A program made the position numbers and the translations under genes. The notes under the pieces were generated by a model. That model was not told the origin of the DNA. It searched no databases and worked only from the letters and a program-made list of their open reading frames with translations. A stretch of 24,000 nt of DNA from an uncultured Gammaproteobacteria bacterium (GTDB lineage: Bacteria > Pseudomonadota > Gammaproteobacteria > Methylococcales > Methylomonadaceae): contig CAWDOO010000012.1 in the NCBI GenBank assembly GCA_963804035.1, positions 303,477 through 327,476 of the forward strand. Reading direction: 5' to 3'. Every line of letters begins with the position of its first letter. The stretch's first letter is position 1. Shown piece after piece: positions 1,180 through 20,371 of the stretch.

Positions 1180-1451
1180 ATGAAAAGCAAGAAAGAAGAA
1201 GCATCAACACGAACTGTCCGCAGCAAATATACGGCATCGTTTAAAGAACAGGCATTGGAACGGGCTGAAAAAGATGGCATCCCCAAGGTGGTGCAGGATT
1301 TAGGGTTTGCAGAGGCGACCTTGTACGCCTGGCGGGCAAAGCGTCGGCAAACAGGGCAACCCTTTGAAGACCAAAAGCTCCAGCAAGCTGAAATGGCCAG
1401 GCTCAAACGAGAAAATGCTCGCCTGGAAGAGGAAGTGGCCTTCCTAAAAAA
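1180..1451 (+). pseudogene. IS3 orfA (HTH transposase subunit), 5' portion cut by the IS110 insertion
   Basis: The product MKSKKEEASTRTVRSKYTASFKEQALERAEKDG...LKRENARLEEEVAFLK has the typical IS3 OrfA HTH plus leucine zipper. The ORF-track tail after nt 1451 (NRLPGKPAPYAKKLLPLD) is read-through into IS110 sequence. The natural continuation KAAAYFAKQPK* resumes at 3029-3064. Confidence 0.85.
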
Positions 1452-1677
1452 CCGCCTCCCTGGCAAACCAGCCCCCTATGCAAAGAAACTTTTGCCCTTA
1501 GACTGATTTAGCGTGCGGACACTGGCCGACCGCTTTTTGGAGGTTAATATCCCCGTCAAAAAACCTGGCCTGTGGGAAGCTGCGGACCAACTGTGGTGGC
1601 GCTAAACGTGACCCCGTTTAGGAAGGTGAACACATCCGAGTCCCTGTCCGACGCATTCAATCCTACAGGAGACGGAC
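1452..1677 (+). ncRNA. Candidate IS110 bridge (guide) RNA region in the 5' non-coding left end
   Basis: nt 1617-1626 (tttaggaagg) is a perfect reverse complement of the left target flank 1439-1448 (ccttcctaaa). IS110-subgroup elements are known to encode a bridge RNA upstream of the recombinase. Secondary structure and transcript ends were not determined here. Confidence 0.35.
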
Positions 1678-3027
1678 ATGTCGAAAGCGATTAACCCAAT
1701 GAACGGTTTACCAGTTATTCATGAACGTGCTGCCGGTATTGATATTGGCTCACGTTTTCACGTTGTTGCAGTGCCCACTGCCCTGACAGTTGAACCCGTG
1801 CAGACATTCCAAGCGTTTACCGCTGATATCCAGCGCATGGCCGATTGGCTAAAAAGCGTCGGCGTTGAGACGGTCGTCATGGAGTCGACCGGGGTTTATT
1901 CGGTGCCGGTCTTTGAAGTCCTGGAAAGCGCCGGGCTAGACGTTATGGTCGCCAATGCCAGAGAGACCCGGTCTGTCCCTGGACGTAAGAGTGACGTCAA
2001 CGATGCGCAATGGCTGCAACGTCTTCATGCCTGCGGGCTGTTGCGTGCGAGTTTTCGTCCCGGACGCGATATTGCGGCGTTAAGGGCTTATCTTCGGCAT
2101 CGGGAACGGCTGTTGGATTATTCGGCAGCCCATGTCCAGCATATGCAAAAAGCATTAACCTATATGAACTTACAGTTGCACCATGTCGTTTCAGACATCA
2201 CAGGGATGACGGGCATAAAGATCATCCGCGCCATAGTGGGTGGTGAACGCAACCCTGAAGAATTAACCAAATTCCGGCATATTTGCTGCAAGGCGAGCGA
2301 AGAGACCATTCGCAACGCCCTAATTGGTAATTATCAGCCAGAACATGTGTTTGCGTTATCGCAGTCCCTGGCATTGTATGATTTTTACCAACTACGGGTC
2401 GATGAATGTGACAAACAAATCGAACAGGCATTGGCCGTCCTGAATGCGGGCAAGCCAGAACCCAACCAACCGATACCCAAAACTCGACAACGCACCAAAC
2501 AGGCCAACGCCGTAAACTTTGACGTGCGGTCAGCCCTCTATCAGTTGGTTGGCACCGATTTAACGCAGATCCATGGAATTGGGCCGTTTTTGGCATTGCG
2601 CCTGATCGCAGAATGCGGCACTGATTTGAGCAAGTGGCGAACCGCCAAGCACTTCACCTCATGGCTTACGCTTTCACCGGGGTGTAAAATCAGCGGTGGC
2701 AAGGTATTGTCTGCCCATTCGCGTAAATCAACAAACCGGCTGACCGCACACCTTCGGCTAGCCGCCGTGACCGTTGGCAAAACCAACACGGCATTGGGAG
2801 CATTTTATCGCCGATTAGCGGCACGGATCGGGAAGGCCAAGGCTGTCACGGCGACTGCACGCAAAATCGCTATTTTGTTTTATAACGCCATGCGCTTTGG
2901 CATGAACTATAGTGACCCGGGCGCTGACCAGTATGAACAAAAATATCGTGAACGCGTCATCAAACAATTACATCGCCGAGCTGCAGAATTTGGATTTGAA
3001 TTGCAAGCAGTTGAGTGTGTTTCTTAG
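1678..3027 (+). CDS. IS110-family transposase/recombinase (DEDD RuvC-like N-domain plus Tnp_20-type C-domain), intact
   Basis: This is a 449-aa intact ORF. N-terminal motifs are AAGIDIGSRFHVVAV, VVMESTGVYS and GRKSDVNDAQ. The C-terminal region IHGIGPFLALRLIAECG...FTSWLTLSPGCKISGGK is typical of IS110/IS1111 transposases. An SD-like acaggagacggacATG precedes the start. Confidence 0.9.
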   Translation: MSKAINPMNGLPVIHERAAGIDIGSRFHVVAVPTALTVEPVQTFQAFTADIQRMADWLKSVGVETVVMESTGVYSVPVFEVLESAGLDVMVANARETRSVPGRKSDVNDAQWLQRLHACGLLRASFRPGRDIAALRAYLRHRERLLDYSAAHVQHMQKALTYMNLQLHHVVSDITGMTGIKIIRAIVGGERNPEELTKFRHICCKASEETIRNALIGNYQPEHVFALSQSLALYDFYQLRVDECDKQIEQALAVLNAGKPEPNQPIPKTRQRTKQANAVNFDVRSALYQLVGTDLTQIHGIGPFLALRLIAECGTDLSKWRTAKHFTSWLTLSPGCKISGGKVLSAHSRKSTNRLTAHLRLAAVTVGKTNTALGAFYRRLAARIGKAKAVTATARKIAILFYNAMRFGMNYSDPGADQYEQKYRERVIKQLHRRAAEFGFELQAVECVS

Positions 3028-3028
3028 G

Positions 3029-3458
3029 AAGGCGGCGGCGTACTTCGCGAAACAGCCCAAGTGAAGTACGCCATGATTAAATCCAATGAAAACCAATTCC
3101 GCATCGGCCTGATGTTCGGTATCGCGCAGCGGTTATTACAGTTGGAAACAGCGCCCACCTTCAGATAGGGATCGGGCCAACCAACTGCTGACGGACGAAA
3201 TCAAACGGGTGTTTGACGACGAAAAAGGACGGTCTGGCGCACCCAGGATAGCCAAGCGTCTCCAAGACGAAGGTAAGGCGGCAGGCCGCCACCGTATAGC
3301 CAGGATTATGAAGGACAATGGCTGGCGGGCGAAGGCGGCCAGGAAATACAATGCGACCACCAACAGCAAGCACGCATTGCCAGTCGCCCCTAACCTGTTG
3401 GAACAGGATTTCAGTGCAGACAAGCCCGACCAAAAGTGGGTATCGGATATCACCTATA
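3029..3458 (+). pseudogene. IS3 orfA tail (to the stop at 3062-3064) and N-terminal half of orfB up to the intron insertion site; contains an extra frame change
   Basis: The -1 frame from 3031 reads GGGVLRETAQVKYAMIKSNENQFRIGLM and hits a stop at 3166. The homologous reading continues in another frame from about 3128: SGYYSWKQRPPSDRDRANQLLTDEIKRVFDDEKGRSGAPRIAKRL...DKPDQKWVSDITY. DITY is the first DDE aspartate region. Confidence 0.75.
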
Positions 3459-4117
3459 GTGCGCCCAGCCTTTGGAGGTGTTATGGATAGACACTAACAA
3501 AGCTTGAGCATGTTTGGAATGCGTTTGTCTTGAATGCGGATGCAATTGAGCAAATGCCCACTTTCTGCTACGGGAAAGTGAGAGCCGAAGCGGCGGTGAT
3601 CTGCTGTACACTGGCAGAGTGACGTAGCCCGTGGGAAAAGGGGTGTGAGGCGAAACCGTTACGCCAAAATGCACCTCTAGGCTGAGTATTGGAAGGCTGA
3701 GGAACACGAACCGATTAATCCGTATCTATGGGCTGAAATGTCGCCTCCACCTACACGGTTTAATAGGTGGAATACAGATAAGAAAAGTTGACAGGTAACT
3801 TATTTCTTCACTTTCTATTGCATATGTAGGGCAATAGAAATGGGCTTTGAGAAGGGCGTAGTTAAATCAAAGAATCTGTATCAACTTGCAGCAAGCAAGG
3901 CTAAAGACTGCGATCGGCAGCCTACCCAATACGTTTGAGTCCGGCATGTGGAATGGGGAAGGTCTATTTAGATGATAAGGGAGTGTGACCCCAATGATAA
4001 ATAGATTGGCGGAGTTTCCATAGTAGTCTGAGATGGGGAAAACCTATTACCTGGCGAAGGGAAACAGTTTAAGAAATTTGCTTGGCAAATTACCTGACTC
4101 TAGTGAGGTGAAGACCT

Positions 4118-5644
4118 TTGATAATCAGTGAAATGCAAAACAAAATTGCAATGTGGGCCGAGGCGGATGGTCAACGCAAATTTGATCGGCTGTTACGGCT
4201 TATTACTAATCGGTCTTGGTTGCATGAAGCCGCCCGTATTACTCTGGCATCCAGTGGTGCCAATACAGCGGGTATTGATGGCGTAAACAAGGCCATGCTG
4301 GAAGGTCACCTTGGTTCGCAGTTGGAACAAATTCGGTTACGGCTGCTAACGGGAAATTACAAACCTTTACCGGCAAGGCGTGTTTATATTCCTAAGGCGA
4401 ATGGTAAACAAAGACCTTTAGGTATTCCGACATTAACTGACCGCATTGTGCAAAGAGCCATGCTGATGGCTATGGAGCCCATATGGGAAAGCGACTTTCA
4501 TCGATTATCCTATGGATTCAGGCCGGAACGTAGTGTCCATCACGCTGTTAGGACAGTGAAACTTCAGTTGCAAGATAGTGCACACACATCAGGCCGATGG
4601 GTCATCGAAGGTGATCTGACGAGCTATTTTGATACAGTGCATCATAAATTATTACTGAAATATGTACGGAAAAGAATTTGCGATCAACGATTCCTAGCCC
4701 TGCTTTGGCAGTTCATTAAAGCTGGCCATGTTGATCAAGGTCTCTTTTGCGCTTCAAGTGAAGGGGTTCCGCAAGGGGGTGTGATATCACCGTTGCTATC
4801 CAATATTATGCTCAACGAGTTTGATCAATGGTTGGATGCAAAATACCTAAACAATAAAGCGCGGAAAGACCGATGGTCTTGGAATCACAGTATTGATAGT
4901 AAGCGGCCTATTGCGATGCAAGAAAACAGGCAATGGCGTCCCGCCATTAGTTATTGCCGCTACGCAGATGACTTTGTTGTTATTGTTAAAGGCACAAAAG
5001 CCCAAGCGGAAGCCATGCGTGAAGAATGCCGAAGCTTTCTGGAAGATGAACTGAAGTTAACACTTAATATGGATAAAACCCATGTGACGCATGTTAACGA
5101 CGGCTTTACTTTTCTTGGACACAGGATTATTCGTAAGCGTGGCTCGCTCGGCAATTGGCGTGTAGTAACAACAATACCTAAGGATAAATTCAAAAGTTTT
5201 GCCGCAAAATTGGTGAATGAATTATCCAGTAATTATAGTGAGAACAAGATAGACCTGATAGCCAGCCTAAACCGAAAGATAACGGGATGGGCAAACTTCT
5301 ATCAATTTACAGACTATACAGCAGTCATGTTTGGAAAACTGGATCAAATATTGTTCTGGAAAACCGGACACTGGCTGGCAAGGAAATTCAACGTTTCAAT
5401 TAAGTCATTAATAAAGCAATGGTTTCGGCGACCCAAGATAGGTCAAGCTAAAACATGGGTTCTGTATGGTCGAAATAGTCGGGGTAATCTTGAGGGTATA
5501 GCGCTAAAACGGCTAGTTACCAGCCGGAAAAGCCAGTTTCGGTGGCGTAATCCAGAAATGAATCCGTACATTTTACGTGATGAAGACAGGAATACCGTTA
5601 CCTCTCACTATGTCGAAATTGCAATAGCTATGAGCTATTCTTAA
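4118..5644 (+). CDS. Group II intron reverse transcriptase/maturase (no recognisable HNH endonuclease domain)
   Basis: RT blocks are present: RRVYIPKANGKQRPLGIPTLTDRIVQRAM, SYGFRPERSVHHA, EGDLTSYFDTVHH, GVPQGGVISPLLSNI and the YADD catalytic box (RYADDFVVIV). A maturase/X region follows (LNRKITGWANFYQF). No CxxC/HNH motifs occur at the C-terminus. A TTG start at 4118 lies 8 nt after GAGGTG; an ATG at 4133 is the alternative start. Confidence 0.9.
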   Translation: MIISEMQNKIAMWAEADGQRKFDRLLRLITNRSWLHEAARITLASSGANTAGIDGVNKAMLEGHLGSQLEQIRLRLLTGNYKPLPARRVYIPKANGKQRPLGIPTLTDRIVQRAMLMAMEPIWESDFHRLSYGFRPERSVHHAVRTVKLQLQDSAHTSGRWVIEGDLTSYFDTVHHKLLLKYVRKRICDQRFLALLWQFIKAGHVDQGLFCASSEGVPQGGVISPLLSNIMLNEFDQWLDAKYLNNKARKDRWSWNHSIDSKRPIAMQENRQWRPAISYCRYADDFVVIVKGTKAQAEAMREECRSFLEDELKLTLNMDKTHVTHVNDGFTFLGHRIIRKRGSLGNWRVVTTIPKDKFKSFAAKLVNELSSNYSENKIDLIASLNRKITGWANFYQFTDYTAVMFGKLDQILFWKTGHWLARKFNVSIKSLIKQWFRRPKIGQAKTWVLYGRNSRGNLEGIALKRLVTSRKSQFRWRNPEMNPYILRDEDRNTVTSHYVEIAIAMSYS

Positions 5645-5649
5645 ATGGA

Positions 5650-5683
5650 GAGCTGTATGCGCTGAAAGGTGCCTGTGCAGTTC
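5650..5683 (+). ncRNA. Group II intron domain V
   Basis: The 34-nt sequence gagctgtatgcgctgaaaggtgcctgtgcagttc matches the DV consensus shape: GAGC...GTAT start with an AGC triad, a terminal tetraloop-type region, and a ...GTTC end. It lies immediately after the IEP stop. Confidence 0.7.
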
Positions 5684-5734
5684 GGTGAGGAGAAGCAGGG
5701 AAATAGTTCGACTACGCCCTGCTTCTTACTCTAC

Positions 5735-6186
5735 TCTGGACGGACGAAGGCTGGCTGTACTTGGCGGTCGTGCTGGAGCTTTATTCACGGCGGGTCATTG
5801 GCTGGGCAATCTCAGAACGTATGGCGGCAACGCTAGTCTGCGATGCCCTCACCATGGCGTTATGGAATCGAAAAATGCCAAAGAGTGTGGTAATCCACTC
5901 TGACCGGGGCAGCCAATATTGTTCAGCCGTTTACCAGAAGCTGTTCAGAAAACACCGGCTGATTTGCAGCATGAGCAAGAAGGGCGACTGTTATGACAAC
6001 GCCGACAAGGAAAGCTGGAACCATAGCTTCAAGGTCGAAGCGGTGCATGGTGAACGCTTTAAAACCCGTTCGGAGGCTAAATACCAAGTGTTCGAATATA
6101 TCGAAGTGTATTACAATCGCAAACGGCTTCATTCAAAACTGGGCTATCTTAGCCCGGAAGCATTTGAAGCTAAAAAAGTCGCTTAG
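5735..6186 (+). pseudogene. IS3 orfB C-terminal part (rve/DDE integrase core)
   Basis: The product reads [30 protein letters not shown]...[12 protein letters not shown]...[17 protein letters not shown]...[20 protein letters not shown]. It carries the second D (HSDRG) and the E (DKES) of the DDE triad. Confidence 0.85.
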
Positions 6187-6216
6187 TGGAGTGTCCGTGA
6201 AATCAGGGCAAGATCA

Positions 6217-6293
6217 CTTATTTAGAGGTTTATTTGGTATGCTATCTATCGAGGTTCTCTATGGGTGATTTTTTTTACCGCTTCCCAGAGAAT
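6217..6293. repeat. 77-bp direct repeat, right copy, abutting the IS3 right end
   Basis: It is identical to 1040-1116. It contains the last 48 nt and stop of the minus-strand CDS 6246-7232, so that gene stays intact. Confidence 0.9.
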
Positions 6294-7232
6294 TGGGGGT
6301 ACGAACATTTTCATAAATTGTTTAGTTTGAGTAAAGGGCGTGGACTCATTAGGAAATATCAAAAGTTCTGGTGACAAATACTGGTTTAATACTCGTTGTT
6401 CGCGCATTTCTCTAGCTAATGGGTTAGTGTAGTAATAAGATGCCACTGATCGTCTGGCATATTCGGGCGGACAATTTAAGGGTGTAGGATGGCCATGAAA
6501 GTTAGTTTTTCCATTTCGCATGAGAATTGAGCGGCCAAATTCGGGAACGACTTTTCTAACACAATGTTTGGATTCTGAATCCCACAATTCTAAAGCGCCA
6601 GCCCAAGATGGATCCCAATTTTTATTGAGATAGGTTATGAATACCATCTCATTGCGTAGACCGTTGTTAATATGGCATGTGAAATCCGTATGCACACCAA
6701 AACCACCGCCTCTTCTAGTTTCATGCAGTCCGCCACCGTATAGCATAGGATCAGGAAGCAAGTCGCTGACTTTGGTGATTTGTGACAGAAGCGCCAAGAA
6801 CCAGCCTGAATTGACAAGGTTAAAATACAAAGTTGAAGCAGCACCCAGTATTGGGTTGGGTTGAGATCGGTAAGAATGTTGGTAAGCGTAATAAACTTTT
6901 CTCCAACCGCCGTGTTCAATTAGATCAAATTCTTCGTGTATCAATTCAAGAAGGGTAGGGTTGAACCAATCTTGGGTAACGATATGTTGATAGGGTTTAG
7001 CACTATGCATTTGTTTTTGTAATGCTTTTACGAAGTTTCTATCATATAGCTGAGTATTGACCAAATCATCCAGATTAATGCGCTTACCACGGATATAGAT
7101 TAAGTTTCCAGAGCCTGGTTCGGTGGCGAAACTTTCACTATCATTACTGATCATCCAGTCCACCAATACATTCTTTTGAAAAGAATGAATATTACCTCCC
7201 CTCATAAAGTCATTGACTTTCAATCCACGCAT
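6246..7232 (-). CDS. 2OG-Fe(II) oxygenase superfamily protein (prolyl-hydroxylase-like fold)
   Basis: A candidate HxD...H iron triad is present (GVHTDF ... TNFHGH), and RRSVASYYY is a possible 2OG-binding R/S. The start was chosen at MRGLKV (ATG 7232) because of the AAGGG 7 nt upstream. The ORF-track start at 7295 has no SD. Confidence 0.65.
   Translation of the reverse strand: MRGLKVNDFMRGGNIHSFQKNVLVDWMISNDSESFATEPGSGNLIYIRGKRINLDDLVNTQLYDRNFVKALQKQMHSAKPYQHIVTQDWFNPTLLELIHEEFDLIEHGGWRKVYYAYQHSYRSQPNPILGAASTLYFNLVNSGWFLALLSQITKVSDLLPDPMLYGGGLHETRRGGGFGVHTDFTCHINNGLRNEMVFITYLNKNWDPSWAGALELWDSESKHCVRKVVPEFGRSILMRNGKTNFHGHPTPLNCPPEYARRSVASYYYTNPLAREMREQRVLNQYLSPELLIFPNESTPFTQTKQFMKMFVPPILWEAVKKITHREPR

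Positions 7233-20172: not shown

Positions 20173-20248
<76 letters not shown>

Positions 20249-20295: not shown

Positions 20296-20371
<76 letters not shown>

Follow-up and report, generated by a model that had tools for sequence, protein, structure and literature searches.

Does a perfect 10-nt match between the left end of a mobile element and the flank of its insertion site reveal the guide that led the element to its target? In the window, by which we mean the whole stretch of 24,000 nucleotides analysed here, tttaggaagg (1617-1626) and ccttcctaaa (1439-1448) are perfect reverse complements of each other. The preliminary description took the former, located in the left end of an IS110 element, for the target guide of a candidate bridge RNA, pairing antisense with the left flank. 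Both this complement and the recurrence of ttaggaagg at 3024-3032, on the + strand, are confirmed on the sequence; the 9-mer occurs three times in the window against 0.16 expected, and none of 100 shuffles reaches three. The target 10-mer, described as lying immediately left of the insertion, stops 3 nt before the crossover. The accompanying chance estimate (below 1 in 1000) is misleading, because TTTAG/CTAAA and TTAGGAA are fixed by the conserved target and right end of the family.

Homologues of the recombinase number in the thousands, at 61-98% identity. Our comparison set (about 160 insertions) draws 80 loci from genomes and 80 from metagenomes, to which close copies and copies on plasmids were added. 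We regard it as likely that 1511-1654 encodes a two-arm bridge (seek) RNA, that its IS110-family element occupies the A AAA AAG/L-K-K site of an IS3-family orfA, and that the 10-mer reads the donor end.

An IS110-family insertion in an IS3 transposase gene

Table 1. Features of the insertion, in positions of the window.
Feature	Positions	Strand	Description
5' part of IS3-family orfA (left target)	1180-1451	+	HTH_Tnp_1 domain
IS110-family element	1452-3030	+	Left end CCGCCTCC..., right end ...GTTTCTTAGG, core copy AA 3029-3030
Small conserved hairpin near left end	1459-1471	+	RNAalifold pairs 1459-1463/1467-1471
AGAAAC motif	1484-1489	+	94-99% conserved per position; upstream of folded domain
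Folded domain (predicted bridge RNA)	1511-1654	+	Closing helix 1511-1520/1646-1654, two arms inside
Predicted target-binding arm	1522-1571	+	Basal helix 1522-1528/1566-1571, apical stem 1539-1543/1551-1554, internal loop between
Predicted right-target guide CCGCUUUUU	1530-1538	+	Antisense to top-strand AAAA-GGCGG
Predicted left-target guide UCAAAAAACC	1556-1565	+	Sense to CTAAAA + AA core + CC
Predicted donor-binding arm	1573-1645	+	Helices 1573-1577/1641-1645 and 1580-1586/1635-1640, apical hairpin 1594-1602/1608-1616, internal loop between
Flagged 10-mer, predicted left-donor guide	1617-1626	+	UUAGGAA 1618-1624 is a sense copy of right end TTAGG + AA core
Recombinase gene, 449 aa	1678-3027	+	Pfam DEDD_Tnp_IS110 + Transposase_20
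Right end GTTTCTTAGG + AA core	3019-3030	+	Kept at nearly all relatives' right ends
Rest of IS3 orfA (right target)	3031-3061	+	GGC GGC GGC... read as (K)AAAYFAKQPK, then stop

The recombinase combines an N-terminal DEDD RuvC-like domain (PF01548, E=1.9e-17) with a C-terminal Tnp domain carrying the catalytic serine (PF02371, E=8e-12), as expected of the IS110 family. Its match to IS621 (8wt6) is weak, at E=1e-5, with the mEsTG, SDvnDA and SG serine motifs aligned. As no IS1111-type reference protein was matched, it is placed in neither the IS110 nor the IS1111 phylogenetic group. With both domains present in this ORF, the 226-nt non-coding stretch upstream of an IS110 recombinase (1452-1677), already noted in the preliminary description, is borne out. 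The stop codon TAG falls within the right end TTAGG, in the last 6 nt of the element.

The left flank, ...GCC TTC CTA AAA AA, gives way to CCGCCTCC, the first element base being C1452; the left target (LT) extends up to 1449 and is followed by the first AA core copy at 1450-1451. On the right, ...GTTTCTTAGG AA is followed by GGC GGC GGC GTA, and the core is duplicated at 3029-3030. Joining 1451 to 3031 restores the orfA frame (...EEVAFLKKAAAYFAKQPK, then stop), and orfB is reached by a -1 frame from the right target (RT). The insertion interrupts the L-K-K codons of orfA at CTA AAA AAG, a site holding the A AAA AAG heptamer, known as the frameshift signal of the IS3 family, from where the -1 frame leads into orfB. 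The element is in keeping with the IS110 family: insertion is site-specific, with a short shared core, no longer duplication and no terminal inverted repeats. The only inverted motif between the two ends is AGAAAC with its reverse complement GTTTCT (3019-3024), present in 120/126 loci. Almost every relative has kept this pair, whose two members stand clear of the folded RNA domain and at unequal distances from the element ends, +33 and -12.

Both junction features, the A-run followed by C on the left and the right end GTTTCTTAGGAA, are kept across the roughly 160 loci, while the outer flanks are unrelated. The sampled relatives share the right end GTTTCTTAGG+AA with few variants, of 1-2 bases (L064, L065, L070/L071, L087, L163 and L169). 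We reconstructed 114 distinct targets: 77 encode xLKKAxxYF of an IS3 orfA, 98 contain an A6G, A7G or A8G run, and the remainder are mostly other transposase-like L/Q-K-K sites. The earlier suggestion that the element is programmed against another transposon has held up. Sub-lineages (L056, L058, L064, L066, L068; L044, L047, L049; L039, L041, L042) occupy other K-K sites, IIEVQKK/LSEILG, ANELLKK/ELGINQQ and LLVLSKK/VAAIFNKGEDE (slashes mark junctions), which are probably further transposase genes. Some relatives have chimeric flanks (L159, L009, L060; L079): the left one encodes an IS3-type ERDILKK, the right one is unrelated to it. The right flank of L079 is the start of its own left end, which implies a tandem copy. 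Copies may thus have recombined with each other, or a donor junction may have served as insertion site.

The IS3 element of the window has suffered other events. A group II intron at 3459-5734, starting with GTGCG at 3459, interrupts its orfB (...VSDITY/I WTDEGWLY...); it carries an RT/maturase ORF at 4118-5644 (RVT_1 + GIIM) and an Rfam domain V/VI match at 5648-5734. A single IS3 copy therefore holds two different retro/mobile insertions. The orfB frame also shifts by one base at about 3105-3125, between ...FRIGLM and SRSGYYSWKQ, so this copy has decayed independently of both. The whole IS3 composite, with inverted repeats at 1114-1154 and 6179-6219, is bracketed by a perfect 81-bp direct repeat (1038-1118 and 6215-6295). 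IS3-family target duplications are 3-4 bp, far shorter than this repeat, which could be a pre-existing duplication that served as insertion site, or a product of recombination or of assembly. Further along the window are two identical tRNA-Phe (GAA) genes, at 20173-20248 and 20296-20371, 123 bp apart from start to start.

A predicted, covarying two-arm RNA in the left end

The left ends of the relatives fold into one shared structure, a closed domain with two arms (Table 1), on which RNAalifold on 123 distinct left ends, a second alifold run and an explicit pair count on 121 distinct sequences agree. In the pair count, 91.5% of cells are paired and 21/38 pairs show compensatory changes; doubly changed cells number 257 against 80 in shuffles, with 0/500 shuffles reaching the observed value, and slid controls are merely 33-54% paired. 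Pairs 1524/1570 and 1525/1569 of the first arm covary (GC, AU, GU), and compensatory changes in the second affect 1599/1612, 1601/1609, 1602/1608, 1576/1642 and 1585/1636. The small hairpin nearer the left end has its 1460/1470 pair as GC, AU or CG in the RNAalifold result. A covariance model of the family (R1) scores the window at 148.5 bits and plasmid relatives at 84-147 bits.

Single-sequence folding of 1450-1690 and 1509-1656 does no better than shuffles (z = 0.02 and -0.92), so the comparison by itself carries the structure. Rfam returned no bridge-RNA family in 1300-3300, at gathering thresholds or at E up to 10, the one match there being a chance hit to Mu-gpT-DE. A sigma-70 scan called no promoter; TAGACT (1499-1504), in which the third base varies while the other five are 83-97% conserved, is a possible -10 element.

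A structured RNA with conserved helices, predicted from a long non-coding end, is what bridge RNAs and seekRNAs lead one to expect. The two-loop architecture anticipated in the preliminary description is present, each arm having an internal loop with a predicted guide, and the 10-mer belongs to one of these loops, directly 3' of the donor-arm hairpin, so that it is not part of a helix. Given the two-arm covarying fold across some 160 insertions and the location of 1617-1626 in an internal loop, the idea of a bridge-type RNA encoded in the left end therefore holds, as far as sequence comparison can carry it.

A predicted guide to the donor end

Which DNA does the 10-mer read? Across 144 aligned left ends, and independently of the flank, each position of GUUUAGGAA (1616-1624) shows a conservation of 91-100%, with 97-100% at 1618-1624 and 91% at T1617. 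The two following positions vary, 1625 being A in 113, G in 27 and T in 4, and 1626 being G in 80 and T in 61. The match that accompanies this conservation is one in sense to the right junction of the same element, with a run of 7 nt or more in 86/93 loci. Changes are shared by both places: in relative L065, and likewise in L163 from a Citrobacter plasmid, a T->C change gives TCAGG in the guide and at the right end alike. Since a sense match pairs with the bottom strand under the IS621 rule, UUAGGAA corresponds to the left-donor (LD) guide. It would read the element's own right end, which would make the 9-mer identity with the right junction the functional match.

The variable base 1625 follows the first base of the right flank, RT+1. 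All 22 distinct insertions with G at 1625 have G at RT+1, against 19/89 of those with A; the association is strong (Fisher 2.6e-12, MI z=20.6, kinship being ignored in both) and one-sided, as A tolerates G. This association suggests a handshake-like role for G1625, and perhaps for G1626 too, in matching the start of the right flank. The 10-mer, then, is by prediction a donor-end guide followed by a handshake base, and no target guide.

The donor loop is half explained: an LD guide is found at 1618-1624, covarying in L065, L163 and L169, but no guide for the element's left end, the right donor (RD), was found in it. Three candidates were rejected. GUGGUGGCGC (1593-1602), considered for the element's left end or the right flank, is the 5' strand of the covarying hairpin, and what links it to RD+4 goes back to one event in one clade; pairing of the Shine-Dalgarno GGAG with CCGCC shows no covariation, nor does GGCCG/GCGG.

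Predicted guides for the two target strands

The target guides would lie 60-90 nt upstream of the 10-mer, in the first arm, where two loop segments, 1530-1538 and 1556-1563, are complementary to the two target strands, overlap at the core and covary with the flanks. In CCGCUUUUU, U1535-U1536 stand opposite the core and U1534 would wobble with the G at RT+1, giving 7 pairs with AA/GGCGG in the window, one of them the G-U wobble. A register test across loci finds U1534/RT+1 paired in 96% (Watson-Crick or G-U), C1533/RT+2 in 84% and G1532/RT+3 in 82%, followed by decay. Several of the loci inspected combine 1532 G->A with RT+3 C->T (L041/L042, L057, L066/L068, L072/L074).

The left-target guide covaries with the flank as well: L057 has GCAGGGAAAC in both guide and flank, L043 has GAGCAAAC against GGCAAAC, and A7 and A6 runs in guide and flank track each other. 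The last two bases of UCAAAAAACC match the first two bases of the element itself (RD+1,2) in a handshake-like manner, and G at 1565 always goes with G at RD+2 (12/12 loci). In the sub-lineages at other K-K sites the target guides are adjusted, with an A7 run and, in several, 1532 G->A; L056, L058, L064 and L039 retain the G.

We infer that the RNA is transcribed, as well as its ends, its pairing with DNA and the order of strand exchange. The mechanism that we propose builds on the closing helix and its two arms, whose internal loops hold the predicted guides. Within the target loop, 1530-1538 would pair with the top strand across the core and 3-5 bases into the right flank, and C1564-C1565 correspond to the first two bases of the element itself. 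In the donor loop, G1625 and perhaps G1626 would read the first base or bases of the right flank, mirroring the handshake guides of IS621, which read non-cognate DNA beside the core.

A relative with another target and another core

L169, an element on Cupriavidus pBB1 with 48% amino acid identity, has a different target and the core AG instead of AA. Its left-target guide GCTTTGGAGCATGG (segment CUUUGG/AG/CA) stands against the left junction CTTTGG/AG/CAT, and its donor guide GTTCAGGAGAT (loop GUUCAGG/AG) against the right end TCTCAGG/AG, so that TCAGG/AG is found in both donor loop and right end. Both sense guides and the core have changed in concert. The family covariance model puts both guides at the same loop positions, in what is a weak match (12.8 bits, E about 0.08); a right-target guide is not recognisable in L169.

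In the family of the window, the left flank CCTAAAA approximates the reverse complement of the right end TTAGG, and reverse-complementing the left end CCGCC gives exactly the right flank GGCGG. The donor of the main family thus resembles a permuted reverse complement of its target; as the relation is missing in L169, it may be a coincidence of this particular target.

Other readings of the 10-mer

The antisense match to the left flank could still have a role if the donor guide also paired transiently with the displaced top strand of TCCTAAA left flanks, which would favour such IS3 variants, that of the window included, as targets. The near-complementarity of LT and LD (CCTAAAA, TTAGG) and of RD and RT (CCGCC, GGCGG) in the main family speaks for such a double use, as does the distribution of antisense runs between 10-mer and own left flank: among 98 distinct guide/flank pairs, 13 reach 7 nt, and runs of 8, 9 and 10 nt occur once each, the window being the extreme. 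In 82 pairs, however, the run is 0-5 nt, so that the complement is missing from most insertions; L169 does not show the relation, and the codons for I/F-L-K account for TCCTAAA. We know of no IS110 mechanism in which a donor guide contacts the displaced left-flank strand, and we consider this reading unlikely.

Alternatively, TTAGGAA in the left end might directly repeat the right end at the DNA level, as a binding site of the recombinase, with no RNA guide involved. The same 7-mer does stand at both places in nearly all relatives, and AGAAAC/GTTTCT offers a second conserved motif pair between the ends. Yet the 7-mer lies in the loop of a strongly covarying RNA structure, in an arrangement that parallels the LDG of IS621, and the base next to it varies with the flanking target, a behaviour for which a protein site within the element offers no explanation. 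This makes a mere DNA repeat very unlikely.

The initial reading, in which 1617-1626 pairs antisense with the left flank as a target guide, has in its favour the perfect complement in the window, the position of the segment in an internal loop, and a 97%-identical copy (L161) with the same IS3 flank. L161 most likely shares the IS3 lineage of the window, however, and is therefore no independent event. The flank covariation that was to be sought in homologues is not seen, GUUUAGGAA being nearly invariant among the 144 relatives while left flanks vary. Eleven distinct insertions, the window included, have an identical TTTAGGAAGG; in the ten others the antisense runs are 4, 4, 5, 5, 4, 4, 5, 7, 5 and 2 nt, beside flanks such as ATTTTAAAAAA, CTATTAAAAAA and ACATCCTAAAAAA that are complementary over just 2-7 nt, an outcome that the preliminary description had itself named as speaking against its reading. 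In a 91%-identical copy, L162, the flank GATCTACTAAAAAA is complementary over 5 nt. With a complement that ends 3 nt short of the core, a separate covarying guide for the left flank at 1556-1565, and a motif that in L169 tracks the right end and not the left flank, this reading is hardly tenable.

For the reading that we prefer, with the 10-mer as donor-end guide, the 10-nt antisense match is best explained as a coincidence or by-product. Its pieces have separate sources: CTAAA is required by the target, TCC is common before it because the preceding codons encode I/F-L, and CCT is particular to the IS3 copy of the window. Many targets contain TCCTAAA, codons I/F-L-K, and the IS3 copy of the window happens to have CCT ahead of it.

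Comparison with known guide RNA systems

The rules for the LTG, RTG, LDG, RDG and handshake guides have been established for IS621 (Durrant et al. 2024, PMC11208160; Hiraizumi et al. 2024, PMC11208158), in whose loops the bottom-strand-pairing guides come 5' and the top-strand-pairing guides 3', followed by handshake dinucleotides that read non-cognate DNA (PMC11208160, PMC11208158). Later work on IS621 found that handshake guides modulate insertion and excision alike. The element of the window resembles IS621 in several respects: a non-coding RNA, in the window a predicted one, whose source is the long left end ahead of the gene for a DEDD/serine recombinase; separate internal loops for target and donor; sense and antisense guides that converge on a dinucleotide core, both predicted in our target loop and the sense one in our donor loop; a core duplication not exceeding 2 nt; a short right-target guide; and two-base extensions that would read the non-cognate partner beside the core.

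The strand order, however, is reversed. The antisense segment 1530-1538, predicted to pair with the top strand, precedes the sense segment 1556-1565, predicted to pair with the bottom strand, and the handshake-like 2-nt extensions come after the bottom-strand-pairing, sense guides. The logic of IS621 is thereby mirrored, CC of the target loop equalling RD+1,2 and G or A of the donor loop equalling RT+1. In further contrast to IS621, a common closing helix joins the two arms, AA takes the place of CT as core, the recombinase has 449 aa against 326-328 aa and matches at just E=1e-5, and no guide for the left end was found.

The order of a top-strand complement 5' of a bottom-strand complement is that of the IS1111-type seekRNAs of ISEc11, ISPa11 and ISKpn4, whose guide order is reversed with respect to IS621 (Siddiquee et al. 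2024, PMC11187229). Those elements nevertheless have their non-coding region downstream of the transposase gene and subterminal inverted repeats near both ends; here the 226-nt region precedes the gene, the stop codon is followed by just 3 nt of the element, and repeats of that kind are not seen. The IS110-type ISEc21 (Siddiquee et al. 2024) shares with our element the upstream non-coding region and a natural target in a conserved coding stretch of IS3-family transposons, but it has the guide order of IS621, and the A6G/A7G L-K-K site of orfA is a different site.

On IS110 elements at IS3 frameshift sites, our literature search found nothing beyond ISEc21, and in the searchable papers we met with neither a mirrored polarity in an element with an upstream non-coding region nor a target at the A AAA AAG frameshift heptamer. 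We tentatively propose, at somewhat less than even odds in our judgement, a large, widespread IS110-family lineage that combines an upstream bridge RNA with IS1111-type polarity and bottom-strand handshakes, and is dedicated to the A AAA AAG of IS3-family and a few other transposase genes; its copies number in the hundreds and are spread over Beta-, Gamma- and Alphaproteobacteria, Acidobacteria and further groups.

Implications

The comparison corrects the roles assigned to bases in a natural guide RNA, the 10-mer being by prediction a donor-end guide with a handshake base. It also provides about 160 natural insertions in which target guides, donor guide, core and handshake positions can all be read. 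The layout of IS621 would not be the sole one among elements with an upstream non-coding region, and this variety matters for the prediction or reprogramming of guides in other bridge recombinases. After ISEc21, the element would be the second natural case of an RNA-guided element aimed at IS3-family transposons, here at the presumed frameshift site. If the proposed lineage is real, it represents a transposon that parasitises other transposons and inactivates them at their most constrained nucleotides.
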